64,000 nt of DNA, taken from NCBI GenBank assembly GCA_049975365.1, contig JBNGDS010000004.1, positions 17,150 to 81,149 on the forward strand, written 5' to 3'. The notes under the pieces are model-generated. The model saw nothing but the letters and a program-made list of their open reading frames with translations, made no database searches and was not told the DNA's origin. Made by a program: the position numbers and the translations under genes. Positions 25,107-42,677 of this stretch are shown here, in pieces. Every line of letters starts with the position of its first letter. The stretch's first letter is position 1. This stretch comes from Desulfomonilia bacterium. Its GTDB lineage: Bacteria; Desulfobacterota; Desulfomonilia; UBA1062.

Positions 25107-26057
25107 TTATAGTGTTTTATACTTGATGCGGGAGCGGGAGCGAGAAAAAAACAGGGACCATCCTGTCTTCAGGGACCCGGGAACCAGCGAGAACGCACCA
25201 GATGCCTCTGCAACAGGGGTGAATCCACACAGTGAACAGTCCATATTTCCACGACCCCTGACATAACACCCCTGGTCTATGGATCCGTCCGGGTTGACAT
25301 TTGCCAGCAGCCAGTCGTGGCATGTCCAGTGACCGGTCATCATGGCATTGAGGCTCCATGCAGAGTTCATGATGGGGTACCCTGACCGTTTCAGATTCAT
25401 GACAGACATCAGTGCCTGCCTCCTGTCATCAGTGCTCAGGGTCAGGTCGTCTTCACCCTGCCCATAGGGGTAGAATATCTGCACGGTGATTCCTTTTACA
25501 GCAGTCAGTGAGAGCATTGTGGTCGCACACTCACCGAACTCCCTCCAATTGAGCCTGTTCAGGGTATAGTGGACCAAGAGGTTCGGATGCCGGCAGGAGG
25601 AGATTTCGTGAAGAACACGCTGGTAGGAATTGCTTCTCAGAAAATTGTGGGTGTCCTCCAGCCCATCAACGCTCACCCACAAGATGTCGGCGGGCACATC
25701 GAATCCGAGGGTTCCGTTCGTTGTCGCCCCCACACAGGGGAACAATTCGCGTGCCGAGGTGACGAGATCACGGAACGTGTGGTCCCCATCCGACCACAGA
25801 AAGGGCTCACCCCCCTCAAAGATCACGATAAGACACCCTCTTTTCTTGAGCTCACGCAGTGATCTCATGGCAGTTTCCCAGTCAATGTGCGAATGTATCT
25901 CAGACGATCGCGTGTGGAACGGGCAGGCCCTGCAGGAAAGATTGCACCGGTAGGTCAGCTTGAAGCTTGCAATCAGGGGGATCTTGTGCCCCAGAATCCT
26001 GGTTCGTACGGAAAACCAGGCAAGATCGGTGAGCGATGTCAGGAAGCCTCGGGCCAC
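25107..26057 (-). CDS. Radical SAM protein with C-terminal SPASM/twitch-like Cys cluster
   Basis: CNLSCRAC (CxxxCxxC) near the N-terminus. C-terminal GCYVRGRGNMDCSLCGF. Overlaps the upstream CoA-ligase gene by 19 nt. Confidence 0.75.
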   Translation of the reverse strand: MARGFLTSLTDLAWFSVRTRILGHKIPLIASFKLTYRCNLSCRACPFHTRSSEIHSHIDWETAMRSLRELKKRGCLIVIFEGGEPFLWSDGDHTFRDLVTSARELFPCVGATTNGTLGFDVPADILWVSVDGLEDTHNFLRSNSYQRVLHEISSCRHPNLLVHYTLNRLNWREFGECATTMLSLTAVKGITVQIFYPYGQGEDDLTLSTDDRRQALMSVMNLKRSGYPIMNSAWSLNAMMTGHWTCHDWLLANVNPDGSIDQGCYVRGRGNMDCSLCGFTPVAEASGAFSLVPGSLKTGWSLFFSRSRSRIKYKTL

Positions 26058-27538
26058 GCCAGGCTGTTCTCCATTCCACGGATGAGGTGCTGATAGCCAA
26101 CCACCTTTGCCAGGGCGTGGACAGCCCGGTCCGGAGACGGGTAGGGCATGATCCCGTGTGCATCGAGGAACTGCACTGGATTCCCGTCCATGACAACGTC
26201 GAACCCCATGATGTCGATAACCGGGATAATGGGCCTCTCGTACCTGCGGATCAGGTCCACGATGAGCTCGAAAAGCTTTCTCTCTTCAGAGATCATGATG
26301 TCTGCAAATTCCTTCACAGCATCGGTTGGGATAGCCTCCGATTTCAGCCACGTTCGTGCGCGGAGAGACATGTACCCAAGTCCCATCAGGAACACAGCAT
26401 CCGTGAGAGAATTCTCCATGAGAATTTGTACAGCGTCTGTGATGACGCTCACCCGGCCTGGTGCCACGAGATCGATGGGATTCCCCCTGCTCCAGTAGGC
26501 AGGAAGGATCCTGTCAAGCATCTCGATAACAGGTTTTTCAAGGGGTTCGACAGAGAGGCCCTCGTGGATGCACATATCCGTGGCGATGACCCCCCAGCCG
26601 CCCCCCAGAGTGATGATTCCGACCTTGTTGCCCGTGGGCCGTGGCTGCATGAACATGCCGGCCACGTCCACCATTTCATCCATGGTTTCCACCTGGATGA
26701 TCCCAGCCTGGCGGCACATGGATGTGAAGATCTCGTCACTGCCGGCTATTGCGCCGGTATGGGACATGGCAGCTACTGCCCCCCTGTCTGTTCTGCCTCC
26801 CTTGATGAGGATGATGGGCTTTCGTGGGGAAATTCTCCGTGCCGCTTCAAAGAATCTCCTGGGCTGCCGCAGTCCCTCGACATACAGACAAATGACCCGT
26901 GTTTTCTCGTCGTGCTCGAGGTATTCCAGGAAATCTTCGGTGGTGAGGTCGGCCTCGTTGCCCGAGCTGATGAGGCGGCTGATGCCTATTCTCCTGCGCA
27001 GAAAGCGGTATGATATGGACGTCCCCAGGTTTCCGCTCTGGACAATGAGGCCGATACCGCCGGGTGTCAGCTGCATGGAGCCCATGAGAGCGTGCATGAT
27101 TGAAGGGTACGCGCTGAAGACCCCCATGGTGTTCGGCCCGATAAGGCGCATACCGCCTGACCGTGCCAATTCCACGATCTCACGCTCCCTGCGCGCTCCC
27201 TTCTCTCCTGTCTCGGAAAATCCTGCGGTAATGATGATTCCCGCAGGGATCTTCTTCTGGATGCACTCTTTGATGGTTTCGAGAACCAGGGAATCCTTCA
27301 CAACAATGACGGCGAGATCGATGTGGTTCTCGATCTCATCGAGGCTGGTGTACATCTTTTTTCCAAACCAGTCGCCGCCTCTGGGGTTGATGGGGTAGAG
27401 GTCTCCTGAATAGCCCCGCTTCACGATGTGGTGGAGGACATTGAACCCCCATTTGAAAATATCCTTCGAAGCCCCGATAAACGCGATGGATTTCGGTTCA
27501 AACAGGGGCCTCAACTCTGAGGTGCTCTTCATGGTCAA
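26039..27538 (-). CDS. ADP-forming acyl-CoA synthetase alpha-like (CoA-binding + succinyl-CoA-synthetase-like domains)
   Basis: 499 aa with N-terminal CoA-binding Rossmann (KSIAFIGASKD...YPINPRG) and a central ligase-CoA domain. No beta (ATP-grasp) partner seen nearby. Confidence 0.7.
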   Translation of the reverse strand: MTMKSTSELRPLFEPKSIAFIGASKDIFKWGFNVLHHIVKRGYSGDLYPINPRGGDWFGKKMYTSLDEIENHIDLAVIVVKDSLVLETIKECIQKKIPAGIIITAGFSETGEKGARREREIVELARSGGMRLIGPNTMGVFSAYPSIMHALMGSMQLTPGGIGLIVQSGNLGTSISYRFLRRRIGISRLISSGNEADLTTEDFLEYLEHDEKTRVICLYVEGLRQPRRFFEAARRISPRKPIILIKGGRTDRGAVAAMSHTGAIAGSDEIFTSMCRQAGIIQVETMDEMVDVAGMFMQPRPTGNKVGIITLGGGWGVIATDMCIHEGLSVEPLEKPVIEMLDRILPAYWSRGNPIDLVAPGRVSVITDAVQILMENSLTDAVFLMGLGYMSLRARTWLKSEAIPTDAVKEFADIMISEERKLFELIVDLIRRYERPIIPVIDIMGFDVVMDGNPVQFLDAHGIMPYPSPDRAVHALAKVVGYQHLIRGMENSLAWPEAS

Positions 27539-28347
27539 TATGTGCCTGGAAAGTTCGGCTTGCGTTGCTCCTTCTGGGCCTTCACGCCCTCGCGGGCATC
27601 TTCACTGGAGAAAATTGGCATACCGATCTCCACTTCCCGGATGAATGCCTCTCTGAATTCACGCATCCTCATTTCCCGCGAGAATTGAATGATGCCCTGG
27701 GTAGCGAGCGGCCCGTTTGACGCAATCTTATCAGCGAGCGCGAGAGCAGTTTCCATGAGTTTGTCCTTCTCAACCACCCTGTTGAGGAATCCCCACTCGT
27801 AGAGTGTCTTCGCGTCGAAGTTGCCTGCCGTGAGGAGAATTTCCAGCGCTCTGCAGGGGCCGACGTGCCTGGGCAGGAAGATATTGCCGCCACCGGTCGG
27901 CATGATACCGAGGCTTGCCTCCCTCATCTGGAAGAGCGCATCGGTTGATGCAACTCGCAGGTCAGCCCCCATGACCATCTCGAATCCACCGGTGAGACAG
28001 TATCCGTGGATGGCTGCTATGATGGGCTTGTTTGCATAGCTGATCTTGAGCATGGCCTCTCCGACACCCCTGCCGTCCCACCCCGAAATGATCCATTCCT
28101 CAGCCTCGTTCTCCGGTTTTCGCGCGCCCGTGAGGATCGGGATGGCGGTCTTGAGATCCATGCCTGCACAGAAGATGTTGGGAAGGGCTGAATAGAGTAC
28201 AGCCACCCTGATGTTCCTGTCCTCATTGATATCCTTCCACGTCTCGTGGAGTTCGAGGAGGATCCCGGGATCCAGTGCGTTGAGCTGCTTGGGACGGTTG
28301 AGACCCACTTTTGCGATGTGCCCGATCTTTTCATAGACGAGGTTCAT
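27535..28347 (-). CDS. Enoyl-CoA hydratase/isomerase (crotonase) family protein
   Basis: Crotonase fold motifs (LNRPKQLNAL ... CAGMDLK ... GGG). Start placed at the ATG after AAAGGGGGAAG (MNLVYEKIG), 7 codons inside the track ORF. Confidence 0.85.
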   Translation of the reverse strand: MNLVYEKIGHIAKVGLNRPKQLNALDPGILLELHETWKDINEDRNIRVAVLYSALPNIFCAGMDLKTAIPILTGARKPENEAEEWIISGWDGRGVGEAMLKISYANKPIIAAIHGYCLTGGFEMVMGADLRVASTDALFQMREASLGIMPTGGGNIFLPRHVGPCRALEILLTAGNFDAKTLYEWGFLNRVVEKDKLMETALALADKIASNGPLATQGIIQFSREMRMREFREAFIREVEIGMPIFSSEDAREGVKAQKEQRKPNFPGTY

Positions 28348-28524
28348 GGCTTCCCCCTTTTCATGCATGATATGATTGACAGTTCAGGTGTAGCGGTATG
28401 GGTAAGGTTTGTCAACATTGGGCAGATCATATCATAAAACAGTAATTACCAGGCACACCGCAACAGCCGGTATTCCAGCAGAATTCGTACCATTCGGCCG
28501 AGGATCGGAAGATCTGCGGCCGAA

Positions 28525-29340
28525 TCAAGCCTTGCGTATCTCTTGAAATATCTTCCGTGCGAAAATGGCTGCCCCCAGGGCCCCGATTATCTGGGGATCC
28601 ACCGGAAGCGGTGTGACCTCCATGTTGAGTATCCTGGCGAGGGCCTTGATGAGTCCCCTGTTCTTTGCGCAGCCTCCGGTTACCGTGACCTGTGGTCGCA
28701 TGCCGATCCTCTTGAGCAGGGTGAAGCACCGTTTCGAGACTGACGCCTGGATGCCTGCCGCCACATCTTCGGGAGGGTTGCGTCTGGCCAGCAGGCTTAT
28801 CACTTCACTCTCTGCGAAGACGCTGCACTGGGCGGTGATCGGGATGACCTTCTTCGCCTTCATGGAAAGCTCGGAGAACTCGTCGAGATCCATGCGGAAC
28901 GTCCTGCTCATGGCCTCGAAGAACCGTCCCGTGCCGGCGGCACACTTGTCGTTCATGGCAAACTCCAGGACCGATCCGTCGCTGTCGATGGCAATGGCCT
29001 TCACGTCCTGCCCGCCAATGTCCACGATGGTCTTGATACGGTGGTCGCAGGAAAAGGTTCCCATGGCATGGCAGCTGATCTCCGAGATGTTCTTGTCGGC
29101 AAAGACCACCTCGTTTCTCCCGTAACCCGTTCCCACGAGGTACGCGAGCTTCTTGTAGCCGCCCATGTCCGGCACCTGCGAGCAGGCCTTCTCCAGGGCA
29201 AGGATGGATGTCCGTTCAGGATCGATCTCGCTTGGGATAATGGATGTGGCCCTGATGGTGCCGCTTTCATCGATGATTACGGCTTTTCCCGTCGTCGATC
29301 CAACGTCACATCCGCCGAAGTAGGCATTGTTCTGGTACAT
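28525..29340 (-). CDS. BadF/BadG/BcrA/BcrD-type ATPase (HgdC-like activator/archerase), paralog 1
   Basis: GCDVGSTTGKAV N-terminal ASKHA motif and bridging-[4Fe-4S] Cys pattern. Shows about 45 % identity by eye to the two other copies. Confidence 0.85.
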   Translation of the reverse strand: MYQNNAYFGGCDVGSTTGKAVIIDESGTIRATSIIPSEIDPERTSILALEKACSQVPDMGGYKKLAYLVGTGYGRNEVVFADKNISEISCHAMGTFSCDHRIKTIVDIGGQDVKAIAIDSDGSVLEFAMNDKCAAGTGRFFEAMSRTFRMDLDEFSELSMKAKKVIPITAQCSVFAESEVISLLARRNPPEDVAAGIQASVSKRCFTLLKRIGMRPQVTVTGGCAKNRGLIKALARILNMEVTPLPVDPQIIGALGAAIFARKIFQEIRKA

Positions 29341-29351
29341 GCTGTCTCTCC

Positions 29352-30878
29352 TTACTGATCGAGACGGGGTGCCTTCATGACGTTCTCCATGAAGTGCTCC
29401 ACCTGTCTCATCATGTTGTCATGGGATACGATGCGCGGATCGCTCAGGTCGTAATCGAGGATGAGCAGAGGGATCCCCTTCTCTCGGCACTTCTCGCGCA
29501 GGATACCGTTCATGGCCTGGCCGCTCTTGCAGCCCACATGGTTGGCAACCAAGACCAAGTCGAGGTCGAACTGCTTCACCATGCGAAAGATGTCGTCCAG
29601 GTAGTTCTCCGCAGGCCCCCGGGTATGGCGGACCATGGGGCCATGCATGACGATCCTGCTCCATCCGCGCAGCATGGACTCGGGTGTCGAGGTGTCGATG
29701 GGCTCGAGGTGGTTATAGCTCATGCTGTCATTCAGGATGGTCAGGCCATAAGTGCGTTCCGTCCAGTTGAATATGTCGGGGAAATGGAGAAAGGGCGGGT
29801 TCCAGCACACTGCCCGATACCGTTCGTTCACCGTGGCCGGGAGATTGTCCTCTAGGTTCTTCCGGGCCAGCTTCACCAGACGCTCGAAGTGCTTCGTCGA
29901 CTCCCTGAATTCGGGGGTCACGTTGAAGTGCCAGAGATGGCTCAGCCAAACGGCCTCGGAGGCAAGGGGGGCAGGCCTGACCCGAAGCATGTCCCACAGC
30001 TCCAGCTCCAGTTCCAGCATACGGTTGCGGTTTTCGCACATCTGCCTGAAGCGATCCCAATCCATGCGGCCGGGCGTGTGCTGCTCGAGGAATGCGATCA
30101 TACCCTTCACGTCTTCAACGAAGAGGTCCACTGCGCGTTCTGTGTGAAAATGATACGGCACGTCGAGGCGATAGATGGGTATACCGAAGGCCCTCTGGAA
30201 GAAGGAGTACGATGCCGCGCCAGCATCACAGGGAAGGTTGGAGCTCACGATGGCCGTGCCCCCCGGCATGTGGCCCTTGAGAACCATGCCGATGGTCACC
30301 TTGGGAAGGCTGCATGAATCCGGATTGATCCCCTCATTCTCCGCCTCGTCTATGTATTTCAGACAGACATCAGGATCCAGCATGGGAAGGACTATACCCA
30401 TGGCCTCGAGCAGATAGCACCTCAGTCCCATTGCATGAGCGATGTCAGGAGGGACCAGATCTTCGTTCAGGACCAGGCGGTCGGGGTCGAAGAACATCTC
30501 CCTGAGCAGCCACACGGTTCCTGCTACAATGGTGTGCATGGTCATGCAGACTGCATCGTGATAGCGGCCGGTCCTCGCCTGGAGGAACCGTCTCGCCAGG
30601 GCGTTCACCTTCAGTAATGTCAGGATCCAGGGATTCCGGATGAGGGTCCGAATGGATCTTACCGGGCCGAGGGTGAAGATATATTCAATGAGAAACCTCA
30701 TGATGACTGCATAGTTGAGAAGCCAGTACCACATGTATACGGCCAGATCCCTGGGGCTCCGCGTGTGTACGAGGTATTGCGCCAGAGAGTTGTCCCAGAG
30801 TTTTATCCCTGTTTCCCTCAGACTGGCGACCAGGAATTTTATGACAGCAATCATATTCTTCACGCCCGGAATCCTCAT
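29352..30878 (-). CDS. 2-hydroxyacyl-CoA dehydratase/benzoyl-CoA reductase superfamily subunit (HgdA/BcrB-like), long form
   Basis: Conserved Cys positions (PCDAG...). Pairs with the adjacent HgdB-like gene. Start chosen at an internal ATG (MRIPGV...) to avoid overlapping the upstream gene; the upstream ATG at 30956 is possible. Confidence 0.65.
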   Translation of the reverse strand: MRIPGVKNMIAVIKFLVASLRETGIKLWDNSLAQYLVHTRSPRDLAVYMWYWLLNYAVIMRFLIEYIFTLGPVRSIRTLIRNPWILTLLKVNALARRFLQARTGRYHDAVCMTMHTIVAGTVWLLREMFFDPDRLVLNEDLVPPDIAHAMGLRCYLLEAMGIVLPMLDPDVCLKYIDEAENEGINPDSCSLPKVTIGMVLKGHMPGGTAIVSSNLPCDAGAASYSFFQRAFGIPIYRLDVPYHFHTERAVDLFVEDVKGMIAFLEQHTPGRMDWDRFRQMCENRNRMLELELELWDMLRVRPAPLASEAVWLSHLWHFNVTPEFRESTKHFERLVKLARKNLEDNLPATVNERYRAVCWNPPFLHFPDIFNWTERTYGLTILNDSMSYNHLEPIDTSTPESMLRGWSRIVMHGPMVRHTRGPAENYLDDIFRMVKQFDLDLVLVANHVGCKSGQAMNGILREKCREKGIPLLILDYDLSDPRIVSHDNMMRQVEHFMENVMKAPRLDQ

Positions 30879-30888
30879 GTTCAGTCGT

Positions 30889-32022
30889 TTATTTGCCAAG
30901 ACTCTCGATGAATGCCTGTACACGGGTACGCAGCTGGCCTTCTCCTCCGGTGGCATATTCCCGCTCGAGTTTCAGGACCGGCACGCCTTTCTTTCTGAGT
31001 GCACTGACCAGGGGCATGGTATCCACTCCCCAGAGATCACAGAACTTGATGATCTCAATGACCACGCCGTCTGCACGGTATTCCTCTACTGTGTCGAGGA
31101 TGTTTTCCAGCCGGCGATCGAAGTCCTCCATCATGCGGGGGCACAGGGTCTTCTTGAACGTGTGCTCGGCCAGGCACCTGATGGGATGTACGCCTTGTTC
31201 CACAGGCATGAGCCCGGGAATGGACCCGGTGCAGAACCGGTCGGCCACCACGAGCCCTCCCTGTGATTCGATGATGGCGATGAATGCAGGATCGTGCAGA
31301 TGCGCCCCAACCATCATGAGGCGTGCACGGTAGTCAGCATTCCCTTCTTCGTGTTCGATCTCCCTGTAGAATGACTCGATGGCGGGGAGGATCAGATCCT
31401 TCGGAGATGCGAGGGATGCCATGACGATCCGGTGAAAATCAGCTCCAGTCAGGGGGGGATGCAGTCTTTTCCTCAGGTCGCCTATAGAACGCATGATGCT
31501 GGAGAACCTGTTCCACCGGTCTATGGCCTCCTCGATGGAAGCAGTGCCCATATTGACACCGAAATAGTCAGAGAGTTTCTCCGCCAGGATCGAGAGTTCA
31601 TCGGCAAGCCATGAAGTGGTGACGTCGTTCACCTTGCGCGGCACGTCGATGACGTGACTGAAAGCCGGCTTCCTGAGGTATTCGAGGTTGTCTATGAGGC
31701 GCTGCATGTGAGCGCACGAAGGCACGAAGACCCACCCCTGGATGAGATCGTACCGGTCGTCCATAACAAACTCGAGCAGGCTGCGGGTATACGAACAGGT
31801 CAGCGACGACATGTAGTTGTCGGCGATCTCGGTCCCGGCAATTCCAGGGGCCATCAGACGAACCGGAAAGAGCCTGTCTGCCATGAGCAGCGCCTCGGGC
31901 ACGAAGGAACAGGAATACCCAATGGGTATGCGGCAGTCCTGTGAGGCCTGTTCGACAAGGGTGTTCTGAGGGCTTTCCAGGAGATCATCGAACAGGTGCA
32001 TGGTCTTGGTAGGCATCCTCAC
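30889..32022 (-). CDS. 2-hydroxyacyl-CoA dehydratase superfamily subunit (HgdB/BcrC-like)
   Basis: N-terminal IGYSCSFVPEALLMADRLFP and C-terminal IKFCDLWGVDTMPLVSALRKKGVPVLKLEREY match the HgdB pattern (GCLPYYVPEEL ... FCDPEE...GIP). Confidence 0.75.
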   Translation of the reverse strand: MRMPTKTMHLFDDLLESPQNTLVEQASQDCRIPIGYSCSFVPEALLMADRLFPVRLMAPGIAGTEIADNYMSSLTCSYTRSLLEFVMDDRYDLIQGWVFVPSCAHMQRLIDNLEYLRKPAFSHVIDVPRKVNDVTTSWLADELSILAEKLSDYFGVNMGTASIEEAIDRWNRFSSIMRSIGDLRKRLHPPLTGADFHRIVMASLASPKDLILPAIESFYREIEHEEGNADYRARLMMVGAHLHDPAFIAIIESQGGLVVADRFCTGSIPGLMPVEQGVHPIRCLAEHTFKKTLCPRMMEDFDRRLENILDTVEEYRADGVVIEIIKFCDLWGVDTMPLVSALRKKGVPVLKLEREYATGGEGQLRTRVQAFIESLGK

Positions 32023-32037
32023 AGCTACGTTCTCCCC

Positions 32038-32808
32038 TTATGTCAGTACGCCCATGGTTTCGAGGATGTGTTCAACAACGCCCAGGGTGGGGGAGGTGTC
32101 CGGGAGCTCCCTTAAAGACGTTCCCCTGAAATCGAAATCCCTGATGAGGTCGTCCTCTGCAATCCATCCGTAGATGGGTAGACCGGTCCTCGATCTGATG
32201 TCATTCACCTCTGCCTGGCTCTTCACCCGGTTGAGCACGAGCCCCAGGCTCCTGAAATCAACGGCCTTGTTGTCATGCGCAACATGGGCTATGGCGCCAA
32301 CAACTCCTAGACCTTTGGCCGAGGTGTCCGAGATGAGTACCAGGTGATCGACGGTCTTCATGACTCGGCGGTTGATCTGCTCCACACCTGCCTCGCCGTC
32401 AATGATGACCACATCGAACGCATAAGCAAGTTCTACAAGGATGTCCTTGAGCAGTGAATTAACCTTGCAGTAGCACCCTTCATCCTCCGGCCTTCCGATG
32501 GCGAGCATGGCAAACCCGTCCTGCTCGTGAAGCGCATCGAACACCTCGTAGTCGAGCTGCCTCAGTGTCTGTGGCGCTCCCTGTGATGTGCCTTTTCTGA
32601 TCTGGGAGATAAGCCCCTTTCTTATGTCGTCCACGGTTTTCCGGACAACCACCCCAAGGGCCACGGCAAGGCCGCACGCCGGGTCCGCATCGATGGCCAG
32701 GATCTTCCTGTTCCCGTTTTCGCTCAGAAGCTTCACCATGACGGCTGCCACTGAGGTCTTGCCTACACCCCCTTTGCCGCACAGCGCGATTCTCGTGGTA
32801 TCACTCAT
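32038..32808 (-). CDS. CooC/MinD/Mrp-family P-loop ATPase (putative metallocentre or Fe-S maturation ATPase)
   Basis: Deviant Walker A (CGKGGVGKTSVAA) and the IDADP motif. Length and pattern resemble CooC/AcsF-type ATPases. Confidence 0.8.
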   Translation of the reverse strand: MSDTTRIALCGKGGVGKTSVAAVMVKLLSENGNRKILAIDADPACGLAVALGVVVRKTVDDIRKGLISQIRKGTSQGAPQTLRQLDYEVFDALHEQDGFAMLAIGRPEDEGCYCKVNSLLKDILVELAYAFDVVIIDGEAGVEQINRRVMKTVDHLVLISDTSAKGLGVVGAIAHVAHDNKAVDFRSLGLVLNRVKSQAEVNDIRSRTGLPIYGWIAEDDLIRDFDFRGTSLRELPDTSPTLGVVEHILETMGVLT

Positions 32809-33538
32809 TTCTTGCCTCTCTCTTCTTGCTCTGCATAGAAAGCCTCATGGATTTGAGCTGCTCCGCATCGGCACATACATCCTGGTATTCGCAGGATTCG
32901 CAGTCGAAATCGAGCTCGAGGGCCATCTTGTCCATGGCCGCAATGATCCTTGCAGCCGGGGCGACGATTTCGCGCAGCTCAGTAACATCTTCGGGTGACG
33001 AGGTGACCATGATCACTTCCACGGATTGGACATAGTCCCTGGCGTGGAACAGCCTCATGAGTGCCGATGCGAGTATCTGCGTTGAGAATCCCGACTGGAT
33101 CGCCTCCCTGCTGATTCTGCACCACTCCTTCTGGTACTGGGACACGGCCCTGATCATGAACCCCTTCAGATCGAGGTCGTAACGGAGAAAGTCCATGTCA
33201 CGGTGCCGATCGTAAGTATTCTCTTCAGTGAAGCCGACCACCCCTGCCAGGACCACCTTTCCGAAGGGCAATGCCGGGTTCCCGGTTTCAGTGAAATCCG
33301 GACCGACGAGGGTGATACGTCCGTGCGAGACTTCGGCCAGGTCTCCCGACCAGAGCAGACTGCTCACTGATTCCACATCAGGGCTTCCCAGCTCGAGGCC
33401 CAGGTCTTCTTTCATCACGATGCCCCTGTGGCCGCCAACGGGCCAGGTGAATGCGGGGTGCTCCGACCAGCAGCGTTTATTCGGACGGGACTCGATGAAG
33501 TCACGCACTTTGTGGATGATGTCTAAGAAGAGTTCCAT
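32801..33538 (-). CDS. Hypothetical protein with C-terminal CxxCx5C motif, co-transcribed with CooC-like ATPase
   Basis: 245 aa with C-terminal DFDCESCEYQDVCAD. 8-nt overlap with the CooC-like gene. I do not recognise a family. Confidence 0.5.
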   Translation of the reverse strand: MELFLDIIHKVRDFIESRPNKRCWSEHPAFTWPVGGHRGIVMKEDLGLELGSPDVESVSSLLWSGDLAEVSHGRITLVGPDFTETGNPALPFGKVVLAGVVGFTEENTYDRHRDMDFLRYDLDLKGFMIRAVSQYQKEWCRISREAIQSGFSTQILASALMRLFHARDYVQSVEVIMVTSSPEDVTELREIVAPAARIIAAMDKMALELDFDCESCEYQDVCADAEQLKSMRLSMQSKKREARNE

Positions 33539-33555
33539 GTTACCGGATACAGTTC

Positions 33556-34341
33556 CTAGCTGTCCCTTGCAGCCATCTCACGTGCCATGACAGCCGCCCC
33601 CAGGGCGCCGATGATCTGAGGGTCAGTCTCCATCTTCCTGAGTTTCACCCCAAGGGCCTCTTCAAGGGCGCTGAACATGCCGATATTCTTCGCTACCCCG
33701 CCGGTCATGGTGATTTCTCTGGAGAGCTCGATCCCCTTGGCAAGGGATGCGACCCGGTGCGCCATGGCCCTGTGGAGGCCGTGGATGATGTCGGGGATAT
33801 CTCTGCCGTTGTTGATGAGGGAGATGATTTCCGTCTCGGCAAACACAACGCACTGGTTGGAGATCGTCACGGGATTCCGTGCCTGGAATGAAAGTTCACC
33901 CATGTCCTCGAGGCATACACCCAAAGCACTTGCCATGATCTCGAGAAATCTCCCGGTACCGGATGCACATTTATCGTTGTAGGCATAGCGGATCACGTTC
34001 CCGTTCTCATCCAGCCGGATGGCCTTGGCATCCTGCCCTCCGATGTCGATGACCATGCGGACCTCCGGGATGAGCCACTGGGCGCCCATCCCGTGGCAGG
34101 CGATCTCGGATTCGACTGCAGTGGAAAATGGGATGTGGTTTCTTCCATATCCGGTTCCGACGCAGGATTTGATCTCGCTCAGCGGTATACCTGCCTGTGC
34201 AAGGGCTGCACCCATAACTTCCCGGGCAGATTCTTCCGGCTCGGGGCGGGCGAGAATGACTTCAGAGGCAACGATGTCTCCGTTTTTCATGATGACGGCC
34301 TTGGCACTCAGGGATCCAACATCACATCCTGCAACGTACAT
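33556..34341 (-). CDS. BadF/BadG/BcrA/BcrD-type ATPase (HgdC-like), paralog 2; candidate BcrD-position subunit
   Basis: YVAGCDVGSLSAKAV N-terminus, length 261 aa. Last gene of the C-B-A-D-ordered set. Confidence 0.85.
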   Translation of the reverse strand: MYVAGCDVGSLSAKAVIMKNGDIVASEVILARPEPEESAREVMGAALAQAGIPLSEIKSCVGTGYGRNHIPFSTAVESEIACHGMGAQWLIPEVRMVIDIGGQDAKAIRLDENGNVIRYAYNDKCASGTGRFLEIMASALGVCLEDMGELSFQARNPVTISNQCVVFAETEIISLINNGRDIPDIIHGLHRAMAHRVASLAKGIELSREITMTGGVAKNIGMFSALEEALGVKLRKMETDPQIIGALGAAVMAREMAARDS

Positions 34342-34345
34342 CTGT

Positions 34346-35125
34346 TCACCCTCCTATCTTCTCACGCGCATACACAGCCGCACCCAGGGCTCCGACGAGC
34401 TGCGGATCGATCCTCAGACGCCGCACCTTCACGTCGAGCATCCGCTCGAGGGCAGCAACGACACCGGCATTCTTTGCCACTCCACCTGTCATGCAGACAT
34501 CCTTTTCCACACCCACACTGCGGGCCAGGATCGCCACTCTGGCAGCCATGGCCTGGTTGACGGCGGATGCGATATCGGCCTTGGATCGTTTTTCATTCAG
34601 GTGGTGAATGACTTCGGCCTGGGCCCACACCGTGCAGGTCGATGCGAGGGAGAGCGGGTTTTTTGCCTGGTGTGAAAGCCTTCCCAGTTCATCGAGTTCA
34701 AGACCCAGTATATGTGCCATCACCTCGAGAAACCGGCCAGTTCCGGCAGCGCACTTGTCGTTGGTAAAGAACTTTACCACGCCGCCTTTCGCATCGAGTT
34801 TTATTGCCTTGCAGTCCTGTCCGCCGACATCGATGACGGTCCTCGCTGTAGGCATGAGCCATTGTGCGCCTTTCGCATGACAGGTAATCTCTGAGACAGC
34901 CGTGCTCACGAACGGAATCCGTTCCCGTCCATAGCCGGTTCCTACACAGAACGTGATCGTGTCCATGGAAAGGCCCGCAGACGAGAGAGCGGCTTCCATC
35001 ACCTCGCGGGCGGATGCTTCAGGGTTGAACCCAGACCTGATGATCGCCTGGGACAGAACCCGTTTATTGTTGAGAATGACTGCCTTGGTGGTCAGAGAAC
35101 CCACGTCACAACCGGCAACAATCAT
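34346..35125 (-). CDS. BadF/BadG/BcrA/BcrD-type ATPase (HgdC-like), paralog 3; candidate BcrA-position subunit
   Basis: MIVAGCDVGSLTTKAV, 259 aa. GAGGAGG RBS lies inside the upstream small ORF. 4-nt gap to paralog 2. Confidence 0.85.
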   Translation of the reverse strand: MIVAGCDVGSLTTKAVILNNKRVLSQAIIRSGFNPEASAREVMEAALSSAGLSMDTITFCVGTGYGRERIPFVSTAVSEITCHAKGAQWLMPTARTVIDVGGQDCKAIKLDAKGGVVKFFTNDKCAAGTGRFLEVMAHILGLELDELGRLSHQAKNPLSLASTCTVWAQAEVIHHLNEKRSKADIASAVNQAMAARVAILARSVGVEKDVCMTGGVAKNAGVVAALERMLDVKVRRLRIDPQLVGALGAAVYAREKIGG

Positions 35126-35365: not shown

Positions 35366-35608
35366 TTACAGGGTCATACTGATGCGTGCACCCTGCCTGA
35401 TCCTCTGGATATAGAGCTTCGAGCGCTCTTTCAGCACAACCATGTCCGTCTTGCGCTCGATGTACTGCAGTGCAGGGATGGCTTCTTCCCTGAACAGGGT
35501 CAGGCTGTCGATTGCCCGCTGCCGCTCCACCAGGACCCTGGAGCTGTCCATGGCAATGTTCTTCAAGACCTCGATTGCGATCGCTTCCTTCTCATTTTCC
35601 GTCTCCAT
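35366..35608 (-). CDS. Small hypothetical protein (80 aa), helical/charged
   Basis: AGGAGG RBS 6 nt upstream of ATG. Plausible composition. Sits between the HgdA-like and ATPase genes. Confidence 0.5.
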   Translation of the reverse strand: METENEKEAIAIEVLKNIAMDSSRVLVERQRAIDSLTLFREEAIPALQYIERKTDMVVLKERSKLYIQRIRQGARISMTL

Positions 35609-35727: not shown

Positions 35728-37131
35728 TCATGTGCCGAGCCCCCGCAGGTGTATGAACTCGCTTATTTTGTCGGTCACAGCTTCCCATGACTGGACACGG
35801 TCGTCGAACGCATCTGCATAGAGAATCAGGGTCGGGATTCCGCTGCGCTCGAGATCCCGGGCATAGGATTTGACCATTCCCCAGGTGTTCCTGCACCCGA
35901 TGGTCCCAAAATAGGCCACGAAGTCTGCCTTCATGACCCTGGTCATGATGAGCGTGTCGTCGAGCCACATGTTGGGCGCGTCATACGGGCCCCGGATGGA
36001 TTTCACCATGGGCATGCGTGACATCTGCATAGCGAGCGAATCGATCATGTCCTCGAGGGTGTCTCGTTTCATCGTGAACACGGCATCTTCCCGTTCACTG
36101 CTGTAGGGTGCCTCGTCTTCCCAGAAGGTGCTCAGGATGCAGCCCAGGTGCGAGATCTCGTTGCGGTCAAGAAAAGACCACAGCCTCAGGTCCGTGGTGT
36201 AGTGATCGATGTAGGAAAAAAACCCCCGGAGGCGTTCTCTCCCTGTGCTCATGCCGGAGACCCCTCTGGCGGCGTTCTCTTTGATCCTTTTCAGCATGGA
36301 CCGGAGCAGATCGGTGAAGTCTTTCGTCCCCCCCATGAGAAAGTTCCCGGAGTAGAGAAAGAGGTTGAAGATCGGGGGGATGGGGGAGGGGACAAGCCGC
36401 TGAAATTCTGTGAATTCATTGATGAGTTCGGTCTGAAGCTCGATCTCGGCAACGATCTCCCTGAGCCTGTCGATATCCAGTCTGTTCCCTGTCTGCTCCT
36501 CGAGAAAGGATACAAGATTCATGAAATCCTGCCTGTGAAACATGCCGGCCCGCTCATCGGTTAAAGTCGGGGGGTAGCAGAGCTGGTAGAAGGGGATATC
36601 AAGGTACGCGGAGGCGAACGAGTAGGAGTTGGCGTTCGTATCGCAGATGCCGGGTGAATCGCAGATGATCATGTCAGGTCTGACCCCGAGCCCCGCCAGA
36701 TATGCGCCGAGGGCACCGCGCTGTGATGAACAGGATGTCTCGGTGAATCCCACCTCGCAGCAGTAGTCAAGGTATTCCCCGGTTCCACGCTGGAGTATGA
36801 ACGTGCCGAACACGGTCATGGGCTCAAGCAGGAGTGGAACGATATCGAAGGCGTACAGGATCGGTGGAGCGAAGCAGAAGGTTGTCATGGCCACTTTTCT
36901 GCCGTTGTCATGGGCAGAGAGGATGGTTTGCAGATAGTTTGCGAGGAGTTTCATGAGCAGAATACCCGGTTCTCCCTGGCGAATGATGGCATCAAGGGCA
37001 TCACGGAAATGGGGGATGAGACTGAGCAGCGTCTCATACTCCTTGGATGAACCGTCGTAGGTAACAGAGGCGTTCTCGATGATGCTCCAGATGTTCCAGT
37101 CGTAATTGTACTCTCTGGTTTCCCGTTTCAT
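35728..37131 (-). CDS. Benzoyl-CoA reductase/2-hydroxyacyl-CoA dehydratase superfamily subunit (HgdA/BcrB-like)
   Basis: 467 aa. VAMTTFCFAPPILYAFDIVPL and multiple conserved Cys (CDSPGICDT) follow the HgdA/BcrB architecture. Confidence 0.8.
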   Translation of the reverse strand: MKRETREYNYDWNIWSIIENASVTYDGSSKEYETLLSLIPHFRDALDAIIRQGEPGILLMKLLANYLQTILSAHDNGRKVAMTTFCFAPPILYAFDIVPLLLEPMTVFGTFILQRGTGEYLDYCCEVGFTETSCSSQRGALGAYLAGLGVRPDMIICDSPGICDTNANSYSFASAYLDIPFYQLCYPPTLTDERAGMFHRQDFMNLVSFLEEQTGNRLDIDRLREIVAEIELQTELINEFTEFQRLVPSPIPPIFNLFLYSGNFLMGGTKDFTDLLRSMLKRIKENAARGVSGMSTGRERLRGFFSYIDHYTTDLRLWSFLDRNEISHLGCILSTFWEDEAPYSSEREDAVFTMKRDTLEDMIDSLAMQMSRMPMVKSIRGPYDAPNMWLDDTLIMTRVMKADFVAYFGTIGCRNTWGMVKSYARDLERSGIPTLILYADAFDDRVQSWEAVTDKISEFIHLRGLGT

Positions 37132-37148: not shown

Positions 37149-38282
37149 TTATGCAATCCTCTCCATGAAGGCATCCACGCGCATCTTAACCCTGCCTGTC
37201 TCAACCAGGGGACCGTATTCCCGTTCCATCCGCATACAAGGGATCCCGGCAGCCTCGAGGTCACGCTCGAAGATGCCGTTTTCCGAACCGTGGAGATCGC
37301 AGAAGCGTATGTTCTGCAGGATGACCCCGTCGATGCGGACCTCCTCTATCCGTTCCATGATGTAGGAGAGCCTGTCTCTGTAGCAGCCGAACATCCTGGG
37401 ACATGACTTGTGGCTGAGGTAGCGCTTCGCGAGGGCAAAGACAGGGTCTTCCTTCTCGTCAACGAGGTCCCGGTAGGACCGCGACCCGAAGCACATGGTG
37501 TCTGCCACCACGATGCCGCCGGATTCCTCGATCAGGCGGACAAATTCCAGGTCGTCGTTTGTGCTGCCCACGATCATGAGCCGTTTCCTGCCATCGAGAA
37601 CAGAGGGGGCCTCTTTGAGTTCAGAGATGACATTCTTAAGCAGGTCTGTATAGCGCTCCCTCGGCAGTGCAAACCCTGCGAGAATGACAGCCGTGGTATC
37701 CTCGCCGGTTATGGCAGGGGTATCAGATGCCCTCATCTCGTCGAGCTCGATGAGGAGTCTCCTTCCTTCGTTGTACAGTTTGATGGATTCTTTGAGTGCC
37801 TTCTTGGTGATCTTCACACCAAAGTGCTCCTCGATGCTCTTGATGAAGAGCTTCAGTTCGTCCACGAACCATGCAATGCTGTAGTCGGTCACCTTGTGTG
37901 GTACACCCATGTAGTGAAAGTATGAGGGCAGGACTCCGGGGTAGTCGTCTCCTGCCTTTCTCCAGCATTCGTCGAGCCTGCGCATGGAATCGCACCCGTT
38001 CATGATGATCGCCCCGTCGAGGAAGGTGTACGCACCTTGTCCGGCAAGCTGCAGGATGCACTTGGGAAAACTGCAGATAACCGGACCAAAGTAGGTGTCA
38101 CCGATGGACAGAGAGGTTGTCCCGATTCCGCGCATCCTGAAGGGCAGCATGCCTGCTGCGTGGATGATCTCTTCAGGCATATACGTGCACGGGTAGCCTA
38201 TGACCCTTTTCCCGGCATCCTTCCATTGGGTGACGTACTGGTTTGATATGCTCCGGGCGATGTCTTTGAGTTCGTTGATCAT
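37149..38282 (-). CDS. Benzoyl-CoA reductase/2-hydroxyacyl-CoA dehydratase superfamily subunit (HgdB/BcrC-like)
   Basis: 377 aa. VIGYPCTYMPEEIIHAAGMLPF ... IRFCDLHGSENGIFERDLEAAGIPCMRMEREYGP parallel HgdB (IGCLPYYVPEELVYAAGMVP ... FCDPEEMEYPDLKKALDAHHIP). Confidence 0.8.
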   Translation of the reverse strand: MINELKDIARSISNQYVTQWKDAGKRVIGYPCTYMPEEIIHAAGMLPFRMRGIGTTSLSIGDTYFGPVICSFPKCILQLAGQGAYTFLDGAIIMNGCDSMRRLDECWRKAGDDYPGVLPSYFHYMGVPHKVTDYSIAWFVDELKLFIKSIEEHFGVKITKKALKESIKLYNEGRRLLIELDEMRASDTPAITGEDTTAVILAGFALPRERYTDLLKNVISELKEAPSVLDGRKRLMIVGSTNDDLEFVRLIEESGGIVVADTMCFGSRSYRDLVDEKEDPVFALAKRYLSHKSCPRMFGCYRDRLSYIMERIEEVRIDGVILQNIRFCDLHGSENGIFERDLEAAGIPCMRMEREYGPLVETGRVKMRVDAFMERIA

Positions 38283-39565
38283 CTCTCACCCCCGGCGGCG
38301 AGCAGCACCTCTCTCAGACGCTGCAGTGCCTGGTCGTGTTCTTCATCTGCCATCCCTTCCCCGGGGCTCAGCACATCGGTGAGTCCTCGGACCAGAGAGG
38401 GCATCACTGCTTCGAGAACAGGACGGGCTGCATCGATAATTTCTGGAACGAACCACCGGGCAGTCTCCTTGACCTGATCCGGATCAACACAGTCAGCGAT
38501 GCTGTTCACGATGGTGGTGAGCATCTCGGGTCTGGTGTCATGAAGCGTGTTGACAAGGCGGAGAAACCCATTGATCACCTCGGCTATCTCGAAGGTGTCC
38601 AGGTCGGACAGGCCGTGTGCGAGAGCCTCTGCAAGAGCATTTCCGTCCACTTCCTCGAAGAGACGAACCTTTCGGGAAAGACCCCTGATTGCAGGTGTTT
38701 TCACAGACCCGTAAGCAGACACGAGCTCGATGAGGATTCCCGGGTTCTCCGACAGAGAGTCTGCCAGCGCATGGACCATGGCCTCCTTGTCTTCGGAAAG
38801 GGCGATACGGGCCTTCTTCAAAAGGACAGGATCGATATTCGGGAGTGCATCCTGGAACTGCTGGGTGAGGTACAGCTGGAACAGTGGTTTTCCTGCCTTT
38901 GCCAGGAGGTAGTTTCCTGTATGGAGTCTCCTGATGAGTTCACTCATCGAATTGACCAGGGTGGCTGCCTCACGGGCATCGATCCCTTTCAGCAGCGAGA
39001 GGGTGAGGTCTGCGAGCAGGTCTGGGCCCACCTTCTGTTCAATGGGGCGCAGGAGTTCTCGTACAGACCTGATGCCGGTATTGACAAGGGCGAGGAGCGT
39101 TGCCAGGATGCTCCCGACCTTGGCAGGGTATCTCCACAGGTGCTCGTTGAAGATCTCTACTGTCTTGAGGAAACACCCTTGTGACGATTCAGCAACCTCC
39201 CTGATCTCGCCGAAATCAGTGTTCTTCAGGAAGTCTTCGATAGCTTGTGAACGGCCGGCGGCATGGTACACCGGGTTGGATGCGTGCTCTGCGTTCACCT
39301 TTCGCGCCCACGAGGTGAGCAGACTGCCTACAGGCCCTGATATTCCCCTTCCAGAAACCCCTCCCGGATGGATTAACACCCGTGAGACGATCCGTTGCGC
39401 ACCGGAGGCGATCCGCTCCCTGGTTCTCCTTCCTGAAGCCCAGCCCCTGATCAGTTCTCCGGCAATGGAAGAGAGGAAGTATCTGGTGCCCGGAGACCGT
39501 ACGATGTCTGCAACGATCTTTGCCGAAGCTTCAGCGGGTGGCCCGAGATGTTCAGTGGTGTCCAT
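38279..39565 (-). CDS. Hypothetical protein, long member (428 aa) of a three-member paralogous family of unknown function
   Basis: Shares a roughly 130 aa region (FLKNTDFGEIREVAES...LWRYPAKVGSILATLLALVNTGIRSVRELL) with the 228 aa and 143 aa proteins downstream. 4-nt overlap with the HgdB-like gene. Confidence 0.5.
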   Translation of the reverse strand: MDTTEHLGPPAEASAKIVADIVRSPGTRYFLSSIAGELIRGWASGRRTRERIASGAQRIVSRVLIHPGGVSGRGISGPVGSLLTSWARKVNAEHASNPVYHAAGRSQAIEDFLKNTDFGEIREVAESSQGCFLKTVEIFNEHLWRYPAKVGSILATLLALVNTGIRSVRELLRPIEQKVGPDLLADLTLSLLKGIDAREAATLVNSMSELIRRLHTGNYLLAKAGKPLFQLYLTQQFQDALPNIDPVLLKKARIALSEDKEAMVHALADSLSENPGILIELVSAYGSVKTPAIRGLSRKVRLFEEVDGNALAEALAHGLSDLDTFEIAEVINGFLRLVNTLHDTRPEMLTTIVNSIADCVDPDQVKETARWFVPEIIDAARPVLEAVMPSLVRGLTDVLSPGEGMADEEHDQALQRLREVLLAAGGER

Positions 39566-40235
39566 GAATGGAGTCCTCCGTTTTTGTATGTATCTGTTTC
39601 TGAAGCGCTTTCATTCCCGCTTCGGTCAGGTATGATTCGAACATGGTCATACTCCCGTCAGTGAGTGTACTGATCGCATCCTCCCTGGTGAATTGTTCTT
39701 CCATGAGGTAGCTGTGTCCCAGGTGCATGGCCATGCCCACTACCGCATAGGCAAGGGTATGGGGATTCACTCCCTCGATGATGCCGATATCCAGCCACGT
39801 CTGGATATCGTTGGCCAGATCCCGGGCAATATCGCTGTAATGACGCCACACATTGTTGTCCAGTTCCTCGTCGACCCCGAAACTGCCCCTCAGGAGGATG
39901 AGAAACTGCTGGCGGTGGCCATCGATGTAATCGAAGTAGGCGGTAAATGTCTCGATGAGTTTGGCGTAGCGGTCGTCCCTGTCCCAGATATTCACGGGCT
40001 CTCTGAGTTTCCTGATCCGATCCCTGAAGTCTTCGAAGTTCTGCCTGGTTATCTGGGCAAAGAGTTCACGTTTGTCCTGGAAGTAGTTGTAGAATGTCCC
40101 TGCAGACATCCCCACCTTCTTGACAATGTCCATGACTTGAGTGTTGTGGTAGCCACGCTGGCTGAAGAGTTCCTCGGCAGCCTCTATGATCACCTCTTTG
40201 GTAAAGGTCCGTTTCTTGTCGGCCAGGGTTGGCAT
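39552..40235 (-). CDS. TetR/AcrR-family transcriptional regulator (paralog A)
   Basis: HTH region FSQRGYHNTQVMDIVKKVGMSAGTFYNYFQDKRELF. Start placed at ATG (MPTLADKK) after AGAAAGGAA. Paralog of the regulator at 44289-44954. Confidence 0.85.
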   Translation of the reverse strand: MPTLADKKRTFTKEVIIEAAEELFSQRGYHNTQVMDIVKKVGMSAGTFYNYFQDKRELFAQITRQNFEDFRDRIRKLREPVNIWDRDDRYAKLIETFTAYFDYIDGHRQQFLILLRGSFGVDEELDNNVWRHYSDIARDLANDIQTWLDIGIIEGVNPHTLAYAVVGMAMHLGHSYLMEEQFTREDAISTLTDGSMTMFESYLTEAGMKALQKQIHTKTEDSIHGHH

Positions 40236-40261
40236 GTCTGGTTCCTTTCTGTTCGCGGATT

Positions 40262-40948
40262 TCACGAACACTCCCAGCGGCGTATGTCCACGTGGTGTGT
40301 CTCTTTCCCAAATCGCCTTCGGATTCTCCTGCGCACGAGTTCCAGCACCCATGATCCGAACTTCCACTTCTGGTCCAGGAGCCCATCGGCAAGGGTGTGG
40401 GTTGCCGTTCCGATCTCGTGCCGGTCGAGACCTGCGAGCAGGTCTGAGAGAAACGTGCGGACGATGCCGGGCTCAGCGGTTTCGAGGGCATTGATTACCC
40501 TGGCCATGGAGTTGATGCCCTGGCTGAGGGACACAGGGCCTGTTTTCGTAATGGATGCTCTCATACTCTCCCGCTGAACGGTAGATGATGTCCACAGGCC
40601 CCCCAGCAGTTCCGACCACGTGTGCGAGCAGGCTTTCAGCCTCTCTGTGTCGATCTCGGAAGCGATGCTCAGAATGAAATGGCTCAGGAGTTCGGGTGGA
40701 AACTTCTCCTTGAGCTGTTCCCCCATCTCTGCACACGCATCCACCAGGGTATTGACCAGAGAGGGAAGGGCGCTGACCAGGGAGAGAAAGACCTCAGGGT
40801 CCTGCCACATGATGCTCCTCACCAATGAACTTCCCGAAGAGGACGTGGCCATTTTCAGACATGATCTGAGCTGATCCTTGCAGACCGGTGTCCTGAGAAC
40901 CTCTGTGAGAATACCGGGATCGATTTTTTTGCTCTGAGTGCTCGTCAT
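40262..40948 (-). CDS. Hypothetical protein, 228 aa member of the paralogous family
   Basis: Contains MWQDPEVFLSLVSALPSLVNTLVDA, closely matching LLWQDPEVILGLVGALPALANIVICA in the 143 aa paralog. Confidence 0.5.
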   Translation of the reverse strand: MTSTQSKKIDPGILTEVLRTPVCKDQLRSCLKMATSSSGSSLVRSIMWQDPEVFLSLVSALPSLVNTLVDACAEMGEQLKEKFPPELLSHFILSIASEIDTERLKACSHTWSELLGGLWTSSTVQRESMRASITKTGPVSLSQGINSMARVINALETAEPGIVRTFLSDLLAGLDRHEIGTATHTLADGLLDQKWKFGSWVLELVRRRIRRRFGKETHHVDIRRWECS

Positions 40949-42663: not shown

Positions 42664-42677
42664 GGCTTCTCTCCCTT

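Follow-up and report, generated by a model that had tools for sequence, protein, structure and literature searches.

To our knowledge, CooC/AcsF ATPases are known only as nickel insertases of carbon monoxide dehydrogenase (CODH) and acetyl-CoA synthase (ACS), and acetyl-CoA synthesis is the only known setting of ACS domains. The locus described here therefore raises the question of what two proteins of these kinds are doing among genes that resemble benzoyl-CoA reductases (BCR) and 2-hydroxyacyl-CoA dehydratases (HAD). It lies in a stretch of 64,000 nt (hereafter the window) from a contig of a Desulfomonilia metagenome-assembled genome (MAG). The two genes in question encode a 245-aa protein with a cysteine motif, named CdhCL, and a 256-aa P-loop ATPase, named CooCL, which together are called the pair. 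They stand between module 1 (U428-N-O-P-Q) and module 2 (B-A-C, with the subunits M2_B and M2_A and a single ATPase), and all open reading frames (ORFs) of the pair and the modules are on the minus strand. An earlier note on this DNA had proposed that the pair is a maturation system dedicated to module 2, where it would assemble an unusual cofactor, for example a double-cubane [8Fe-9S] or a heterometal cluster.

CdhCL occupies positions 32801..33538 and CooCL positions 32038..32808. The stop of the former and the start of the latter overlap by 8 nt (ATGAGTGA), and the end of the gene for ATPase Q of module 1 precedes the CdhCL start by 17 nt. The five minus-strand ORFs from CdhCL to the end of module 2 stand as the earlier note had described them, and the 8-nt overlap is real. 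Gene families were assigned by comparing Pfam and NCBIfam (release 20) model scores with curated cutoffs.

CdhCL is a homologue of the middle domain of ACS. The Pfam family CdhC (PF03598) matches residues 41-180 with E 4.5e-11, and a Foldseek search of the PDB with the AlphaFold 2 (AF2) model of the protein gave 23 matches at E<=0.001, all of them ACS chains. The predicted local distance difference test score (pLDDT) of this model is 84.7, falling to ~55-70 in the last 35 residues. When the family profile is used, residues 41-193 align to residues 333-482 of the Moorella thermoacetica ACS, i.e., its middle (A2) domain. The two proteins share the motifs E-[LM]-G-G and W-x-R-[VI]-S, and W139-C140-R141-I-S143 of CdhCL aligns onto N-W-L-R-V-S of ACS. 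In the complex of Clostridium autoethanogenum ACS with acetyl-CoA, the ligand rests mainly on A2, with the adenine stacked on Trp405 and the diphosphate facing Lys/Arg (bioRxiv 10.1101/2024.08.05.606187; for acetyl-CoA binding to the A2 domain see also PMC12289521). Judging from the alignment offset, W139 of CdhCL is probably the counterpart of this CoA-stacking tryptophan.

The likeness to ACS is confined to the middle-domain fold and sequence. CdhCL is 245 aa long, scores 33-41 bits against the full-length ACS models of NCBIfam (cutoffs 355-809), and carries CxxCx5C instead of Cx2Cx8Cx9C. Without an A1 domain, an A3 domain or a Cys-Gly-Cys nickel motif, it is ruled out as an acetyl-CoA synthase; by its sequence it is an ACS-derived domain protein made up of the middle domain and a cysteine triad. 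The triad (C213, C216 and C222) is contained in DFDCESCEYQDVCAD, residues 210-224. The earlier note had the protein ending in this motif, which is correct insofar as the motif is near the C-terminus, but 21 residues follow it and the third Cys is 23 residues from the end. In an ungapped extension of the alignment, the Cys-x2-Cys that follows the domain falls close to the start of the A-cluster ligands of ACS, ~4 residues off register.

The triad is the most constant feature of the family. Among 123 CdhCL representatives it is kept in 120, R141 in 119 and W139 in 98. C140 is present in 31 of the 123 and is invariant in the clade of the window. In 19 representatives a further Cys closely precedes the triad, and 75 of the 120 triad-bearing ones are without a conserved fourth Cys. 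The family comprises at least 177 clusters at 50% identity, as counted in an exhaustive profile search at E<=1e-30. The listed representatives are ~230-270 aa long, fragments aside, and ten of them that were looked up by cluster all came from uncultured sources; a look-up of the CdhCL of the window by its exact sequence returned no recorded contig.

The spacing of the triad, C-x2-C-x5-C with an aromatic residue after the second Cys, is also that of the [4Fe-4S] 'iron staple' of Cas4, AddB and Dna2, and 4-5 of 33 CdhCL members show weak Pfam matches (E 0.04-0.07) to the C-terminal end of Cas4/PDDEXK_1. Unlike these nucleases, CdhCL has no nuclease fold and most of its members have no conserved distal fourth Cys, so the likeness may serve as a motif-level lead only. 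An orphan CdhCL gene (Pfam CdhC E 2e-16) was met beside recC and recB-like genes in a 'Proteobacteria' MAG (locus L049, 10001-10723); HGD-D, BcrAD and CooC genes are all absent up to 10 kb away.

CooCL, for its part, is most similar to CooC-1 of Carboxydothermus hydrogenoformans (PDB 3kje), its best match in the PDB (E 5.6e-15, 59 bits, residues 6-232), and the CYC of that structure is matched by GCYC in CooCL (residues 111-114). The defining features of CooC-1 are a deviant Walker A motif, which binds ADP, and Cys112/Cys114, which bind Zn or Ni (PMC6006190). In 74 CooCL orthologues from related loci, Cys112 and Cys114 are invariant (74/74) and GKGGVGKT is kept in 72; the protein of the window reads CGKGGVGKTS. 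With ~255 aa, the GKGGVGKT loop and Cys112-x-Cys114 at the position of the dimer-interface metal site, it resembles the CooC/AcsF group (COG3640, SIMIBI class). It differs from CooC-1 in an extra Cys10 directly before the P-loop, which is conserved in 71 of the 74 orthologues, and its overall similarity of 59 bits is modest.

The earlier note had named a ParA/MinD-type partition or division protein as the alternative identity of this ATPase. That identity fails, as the CxC is invariant and CooC-1 matches over the full length, whereas the competing matches to ArsA (35.7 bits), MinD (31.5 bits) and likewise ParA-type structures cover the P-loop only. The Pfam and NCBIfam matches are generic ones to CbiA/MinD/ParA below the family cutoffs, and Fer4_NifH (24.3 bits) and ParA/NUBPL (17.5 bits) are also under cutoff; the JGI label of the orthologues is 'CO dehydrogenase maturation factor'. 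By sequence comparison, then, CooCL is a CooC-type ATPase, closer to CooC than to MinD, ParA, ArsA or NifH.

ACS is the natural client of CooC/AcsF ATPases, and the cysteine protein does not come from an unrelated family, which the earlier note had held would count against its proposal. Unlike CooC and AcsF, CooCL has no CODH or full-length ACS gene nearby, and its partner is the truncated ACS-like protein in a BCR/HAD-like operon. Neither CODH (cooS) nor full-length ACS genes were found in the 64-kb window or in ~160 related loci, in which CdhCL is the sole ACS relative.

Whether the pair belongs to one of the two modules was examined in two samples. In the CdhCL-based sample, 80 genome loci were collected and their ORFs were classified by phmmer against the window proteins; the denominators below are the loci usable for each test. 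The module-2 sample, based on the A subunit, holds 78 metagenome loci, 44 of them with enough upstream sequence. The same gene order recurs in ~150 independent genome or metagenome loci, far more than chance would produce. In the CdhCL-based sample, CooCL lies downstream of CdhCL, within 3.5 kb, in 72 of 76 loci, module 1 (N+O+P+Q) lies upstream of the pair in 57 of 60 and U428 in 57 of 58, whereas module 2 (B+A) lies downstream in 36 of 58 only. In the module-2 sample, 31 of the 44 loci have the pair, and every one of these that is of sufficient length has module 1 as well. The remaining 13 are without the pair: 11 are stand-alone B-A-C sets, and two (L146 and L147) have U428-N-O-P-Q followed by B-A-C, less than 100 nt apart, with no CdhCL or CooCL in between. 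No case of the pair with module 2 and without module 1 was seen among the module-2-sampled loci with enough upstream sequence. Thus, given 57/60 against 36/58 and the 11 pair-less module-2 loci, the pair tracks module 1. In the lineage of the window it is co-inherited with module 1 and is not specific to module 2, which runs counter to the dedication proposed in the earlier note.

Outside this lineage the arrangement is simpler. Distant units of type I (L089, a Peptococcaceae MAG, and L090) read N-A-ATPase-CdhCL-CooCL, and those of type II (L088 and L093/094) read CooCL-B-A-ATPase-(51-aa membrane peptide)-CdhCL. Each type is a minimal unit of five genes, for two HGD-D proteins, one BcrAD ATPase and the pair. 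Their A subunits score closer to module 2, and so do the B subunit and the ATPase of type II. The pair has been seen in Desulfomonilia, Syntrophales, Desulfobacterales, Spirochaetota and the one Peptococcaceae MAG. The pair is thus generally associated with this enzyme clade and can accompany either type of module, though it is not universal. The systematic association of the pair with HgdAB/BCR-like genes, for which the earlier note had suggested a co-occurrence survey, thus holds and includes the distant five-gene units. The presence of the pair beside modules of M1-like as well as M2-like type makes a generic role, in a cofactor or accessory capacity, more probable than one tied to a particular substrate.

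Several individual loci show additions or rearrangements around the pair. In L132 (4333-6900), the order CooCL-CdhCL-CooCL stands between an M1-like module and an M2 module. In L003 and L004 (10731-13338), from Desulfomonilia-type MAGs, genes for a URO-D-family methyltransferase and a B12-binding corrinoid protein have been inserted precisely at the CdhCL-CooCL junction, with a flavodoxin/Fer4 protein next in line; L003 and L017 are one contig, and L018 and L065 have the same spacing. The insertion deserves mention, since in ACS the middle domain makes contact with the corrinoid Fe-S protein. The conserved 51-aa peptide of the type II units (MAWYWIVLI...; L088 6014-6169, L093 7846-8001) has one predicted membrane helix and directly precedes CdhCL. 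Clusters of Desulfobacterales and Smithellaceae (L066 8807-9994 and 11614-12360; L002 14231-15541) have an added Fer4 protein of 395-436 aa, and in L066 an acyl-ACP (acyl carrier protein) thioesterase directly follows CooCL; these additions may reflect electron supply and perhaps a connection with fatty acyl substrates. An M1-like locus without an adjacent pair is present in a cultured alkane degrader, Desulfatibacillum alkenivorans AK-01 (L173; CP001322.1, 6035746-6057236), in the order GMC oxidoreductase-TetR-U428-like (496 aa)-N-O-O'-P-Q, i.e., three HGD-D and two BcrAD genes. AK-01 lends itself to functional study of the M1-like module.

The modules themselves are recognisable as relatives of known ATP-dependent acyl-CoA enzymes. 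Module 1 comprises a BzdN/HadC-like subunit N (37149..38282, 377 aa; HGD-D E 2.8e-92), a divergent BzdO/HadB-like subunit O (35728..37131, 467 aa; HGD-D E 5.6e-43) and two ATPases of BcrAD/HgdC type, P (34346..35125, 259 aa; BcrAD_BadFG E 2.1e-60, CoA_E_activ 246.6 bits with a cutoff of 125.4) and Q (33556..34341, 261 aa; BcrAD_BadFG E 1.1e-56). Module 2 comprises a BzdN-like subunit B (30889..32022, 377 aa; HGD-D E 8.8e-80, BzdN E 1.2e-22), a long-form BzdO-like subunit A (29352..30878, 508 aa; HGD-D E 1.3e-51 over residues 171-525 of the 534-aa ORF) and a single BcrAD/HgdC-type ATPase (28525..29340, 271 aa; BcrAD_BadFG E 5.6e-53, CoA_E_activ 230.7 bits). The HGD-D and BcrAD_BadFG assignments by Pfam and NCBIfam bear out the description of an HgdCAB-like module in the earlier note. 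The maximal ORF of M2_A starts at 30956 and has 534 codons; as orthologues run 503-515 aa, the ATG at 30878, giving 508 aa, is the probable start.

The cysteines of the catalytic subunits are strictly conserved. In M1_N, C32, C70, C97, C264, C294 and C328 are kept in 73/73 orthologues, and in M2_B, C38, C76, C103, C264, C294 and C328 in 94/94. Both sets align with the six Cys of BzdN (8s02_B), the BzdN [8Fe-9S] pattern, and the two subunits may accordingly carry such a cluster. M1_N matches HadC (E 1.9e-45) and BzdN (E 2e-42) in the PDB. In M1_O, C134, C163 and C413 are kept in 91/91 orthologues, the best solved relatives scoring E ~1e-6 to 1e-7, and the three canonical Cys of M2_A are kept in 113/113 (BzdO E 3.4e-8). 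These three-Cys sets resemble the aqua-[4Fe-4S] site of BzdO and HadB (PMC11971306). The only further conserved Cys are C124 of O (84/91) and C307 (110/113) and C490 (113/113) of A. In weak pairwise alignments (E 1e-6 to 1e-8), the position of BzdO His131 is Gly in M2_A; in the similarly weak alignment of M1_O, which aligned to HadB only, the corresponding position, three residues past the second cluster Cys, is Asn, both readings being of moderate reliability. BzdO Glu65 falls outside the aligned regions of both.

Module 1 thus resembles the Bzd-type class I BCR (BzdNOPQ; PDB 8s02) in having four subunits, an N with six Cys, an O with three Cys and two different BcrAD ATPases; unlike Bzd, its O subunit and the A subunit of module 2 are very divergent (E 1e-6 to 1e-8), with Gly or Asn at the His131 position. 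Module 2 resembles HadBC with HadI and the double-cubane cluster protein with its reductase (DCCP and DCCP-R) in having two HGD-D subunits and one homodimer-type ATPase. In the same direction, M1_N is most similar to HadC, and M1_N and M2_B both match the double_cubane model (NF040772) with 189.7 and 147.4 bits, below its cutoff of 350. Unlike HAD and DCCP, M2_A has a conserved N-terminal extension of ~145 aa, which contains a hydrophobic stretch and near-invariant P72 and W84 and is absent from BzdO and HadB, and a CdhCL/CooCL pair has not been described for those systems. We also know of no bzd or bcr cluster with CooC or ACS-like genes, and the literature search likewise returned none. All module scores are far under the NCBIfam equivalog cutoffs for bzd, bcr, Had and double-cubane proteins, including bzdN (150 and 79 bits against 453.8), bzdO (17-30 bits against 448.6) and bzdQ (165-213 bits against 380). 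Both modules are new members of the superfamily, presumably acting on some acyl-CoA, and should not be called benzoyl-CoA reductases.

On these grounds the reading that we tentatively favour, while leaving slightly more room for doubt than for confidence, is that the pair is a metallocentre accessory pair taken over from CODH/ACS and attached to a distinct clade of BCR/HAD/double-cubane ATP-dependent enzymes. CooCL would dimerise around a metal held at Cys112/Cys114, which by analogy would be nickel but might be zinc or iron, and would use ATP to hand the metal on to CdhCL. CdhCL would be an ACS-derived client whose flexible C-terminal triad receives the metal or an Fe-S (iron-sulfur) cluster, and in the clade of the window Cys140, beside the putative CoA-stacking Trp, could provide a fourth ligand. 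The loaded CdhCL may then work with the reductase/dehydratase modules as an additional cofactor-bearing or CoA-handling component; if it keeps the CoA-binding face of ACS, it might join the ATP-driven modules in acting on a CoA thioester. Lying between modules 1 and 2, the pair may serve both. This scheme is the most economical one, as it keeps the ancestral AcsF-ACS relationship. The analysis itself establishes the identities of the genes, their motifs, the fold, the synteny and the co-occurrence; the metal, the direction in which it passes, the contact of the pair with the modules and the acyl-CoA substrate are proposals.

Several findings weigh against it. CdhCL is without the nickel site and the C-terminal domain of ACS, its last 35 residues are modelled with low confidence, and the majority of triad-bearing representatives lack a conserved fourth Cys. 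Tight nickel binding is not general among CooC proteins (PMC6006190). Moreover, the 64-kb window gives no sign of nickel: no nik, cbiMNQO, hyp or CODH/ACS genes were found in it, the only metal transporter noted in that search being of ZnuABC type, 10 kb away. Finally, pair-less modules of both types exist (the 11 module-2-only loci, L146/L147 and AK-01); either, then, the enzyme class can do without the pair, or its genes are located at another site in those genomes.

A narrower form of the favoured reading places a nickel-containing, A-cluster-like centre on the free-standing ACS fragment, installed by its dedicated CooC-type ATPase, in the BCR/HAD/double-cubane clade. We regard this form as doubtful. 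If true, it would provide the first client of a CooC/AcsF ATPase outside CODH/ACS and the first nickel-dependent member of the radical/low-potential acyl-CoA enzyme superfamily, and CoA-thioester chemistry at a Ni-Fe-S site might be coupled to ATP-driven electron injection.

Among the other explanations, the one that survives best makes CdhCL an adaptor or relay. It would dock CooCL on the N/O (or B/A) core for insertion or repair of a metal there, for example at a heterometal site, in a manner comparable to CooT or CooJ with CooC. That the triad sits on a flexible, low-confidence tail, as in many metallochaperones, that the three Cys alone are conserved across the CdhCL family, and that the pair always shares one operon with a catalytic module all agree with such a role. 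However, known CooC and AcsF proteins act directly on their targets, with no ACS-like adaptor (PMC6006190), the N/B and O/A subunits offer no evident metal site beyond their canonical six and three Cys ligands, and the modules occur without the pair. This explanation is unlikely on balance. A heterometal site, also envisaged in the earlier note, or an additional metal site is a possibility.

Alternatively, no nickel need be involved. CooCL could resemble the SIMIBI proteins Mrp, NBP35 or NifH, carrying a [4Fe-4S] cluster at its interface Cys or passing it on, and CdhCL could be a small [4Fe-4S] electron carrier or CoA-sensing subunit that feeds electrons to the BcrAD-type ATPases. NifH indeed carries [4Fe-4S] at the interface equivalent to the CooC dimer site (PMC6006190). 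The operon of the window has no ferredoxin gene, and related loci carry Fer4 or flavodoxin genes beside the pair; CxxCx5C corresponds to the C-terminal part of the Cas4/AddB [4Fe-4S] motif, with the weak Pfam matches given above, and C140 would supply a fourth invariant Cys in the clade of the window. Against this, the CxC spacing and full-length similarity favour CooC over NifH or Mrp, and most members of the CdhCL family have three Cys only. We consider the nickel-free alternative quite unlikely.

The proposal of the earlier note, a pair dedicated to B-A-C that builds its unusual cofactor such as [8Fe-9S], is very unlikely. It draws on the position of CooCL directly before module 2, on the six [8Fe-9S] Cys of M2_B and on the type II units, in which B, A and the ATPase are closer to module 2. 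It is opposed by the distribution of the pair: module 2 is absent downstream in 22 of 58 loci, the stand-alone module-2 loci are pair-less, and the pair was not found with module 2 alone where the sequence suffices. Furthermore, BzdNO produced in Escherichia coli MC4100 has its [8Fe-9S] although no factor of this kind is present (PMC11971306). As BzdNO acquires the cluster in that host and pair-less six-Cys modules keep the ligands, the pair is unlikely to be needed for [8Fe-9S] assembly. That there is no functional link at all, with CooCL being a MinD/ParA-like positioning protein or the two genes chance neighbours, is scarcely credible, since its one support, the generic sub-cutoff CbiA/MinD/ParA matches, is outweighed by the invariant CxC, the full-length best match to CooC-1, the overlapping start and stop codons, and synteny across Desulfobacterota, Spirochaetota and a Peptococcaceae MAG.

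The components of this locus are of known kinds, and it is their combination and context that are new. Full-text literature searches brought up no account of a CooC/ACS-fragment pair in operons of BCR/HAD type, and neither CdhCL nor U428 is covered by a model of NCBIfam release 20. Candidate matches were rejected on inspection: the 'Magic' cluster of the benzene degrader ORM2 has a different gene set, papers on isoprene reductase and on coal seams contained incidental word matches only, and the acetone proteome of D. biacutus mentions ordinary CODH/ACS only. The cofactors of the superfamily, [4Fe-4S] and [8Fe-9S], were thought to be understood; the pair points to a need, for a cofactor or an accessory factor, that has gone unrecognised. 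It also offers a route to the roles of CooC paralogues not associated with CODH and to the reuse of ACS domains. As the hosts are abundant in anaerobic digesters and sediments, the acyl-CoA reaction may matter for anaerobic carbon turnover.

The remaining genes around the core, all on the minus strand, are in part conserved with it. U428 (38279..39565, 428 aa) is all-helical in its AF2 model (pLDDT 79.9) and has no conserved Cys; it has no Pfam or NCBIfam match and no structural neighbour in the PDB at E<=0.001, and all its homologues are annotated 'hypothetical'. A TetR-family regulator gene (39552..40367; 271-aa ORF, orthologues 208-253 aa; TetR_N E 2.6e-18) precedes U428 here and in most loci. 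Further upstream are two small proteins without a Pfam or NCBIfam match, of 228 aa (40262-40948) and 143 aa (40945-41376), and two acyl-CoA dehydrogenase-like genes with Pfam Acyl-CoA_dh domains (41389-42930 and 42678-43913). In many loci this set of four is kept in synteny, on either the upstream or the downstream side of the core. U428 and the two small proteins have a weak mutual similarity of 22-27 bits.

Within module 1, a conserved small ORF of 80 aa (S80, 35366..35608), also without a Pfam or NCBIfam match, recurs as a 76-88 aa ORF in most loci and is elsewhere placed between the N and O subunits. On the 3' side of module 2 are an enoyl-CoA hydratase gene (27535-28368; ECH_1 E 4.5e-49) and a gene for an alpha-like subunit of an ADP-forming acyl-CoA ligase (26039-27538; Succ_CoA_lig/CoA_binding_2; AcCoA-syn-alpha 424 bits, below the cutoff of 567), and the same two genes also lie 3' in L011, L095 and L133. 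A promoter and terminator scan gave counts at or below the shuffled expectation and was judged uninformative. Farther along the window, also on the minus strand (21853-24731), a 634-aa multi-PAS ORF ends just past an H-box-like HDFNNLL and overlaps by 43 nt a 338-aa ORF with HATPase_c and receiver domains; the two ORFs look like one hybrid histidine kinase gene broken by a frameshift or by an error in the assembly.

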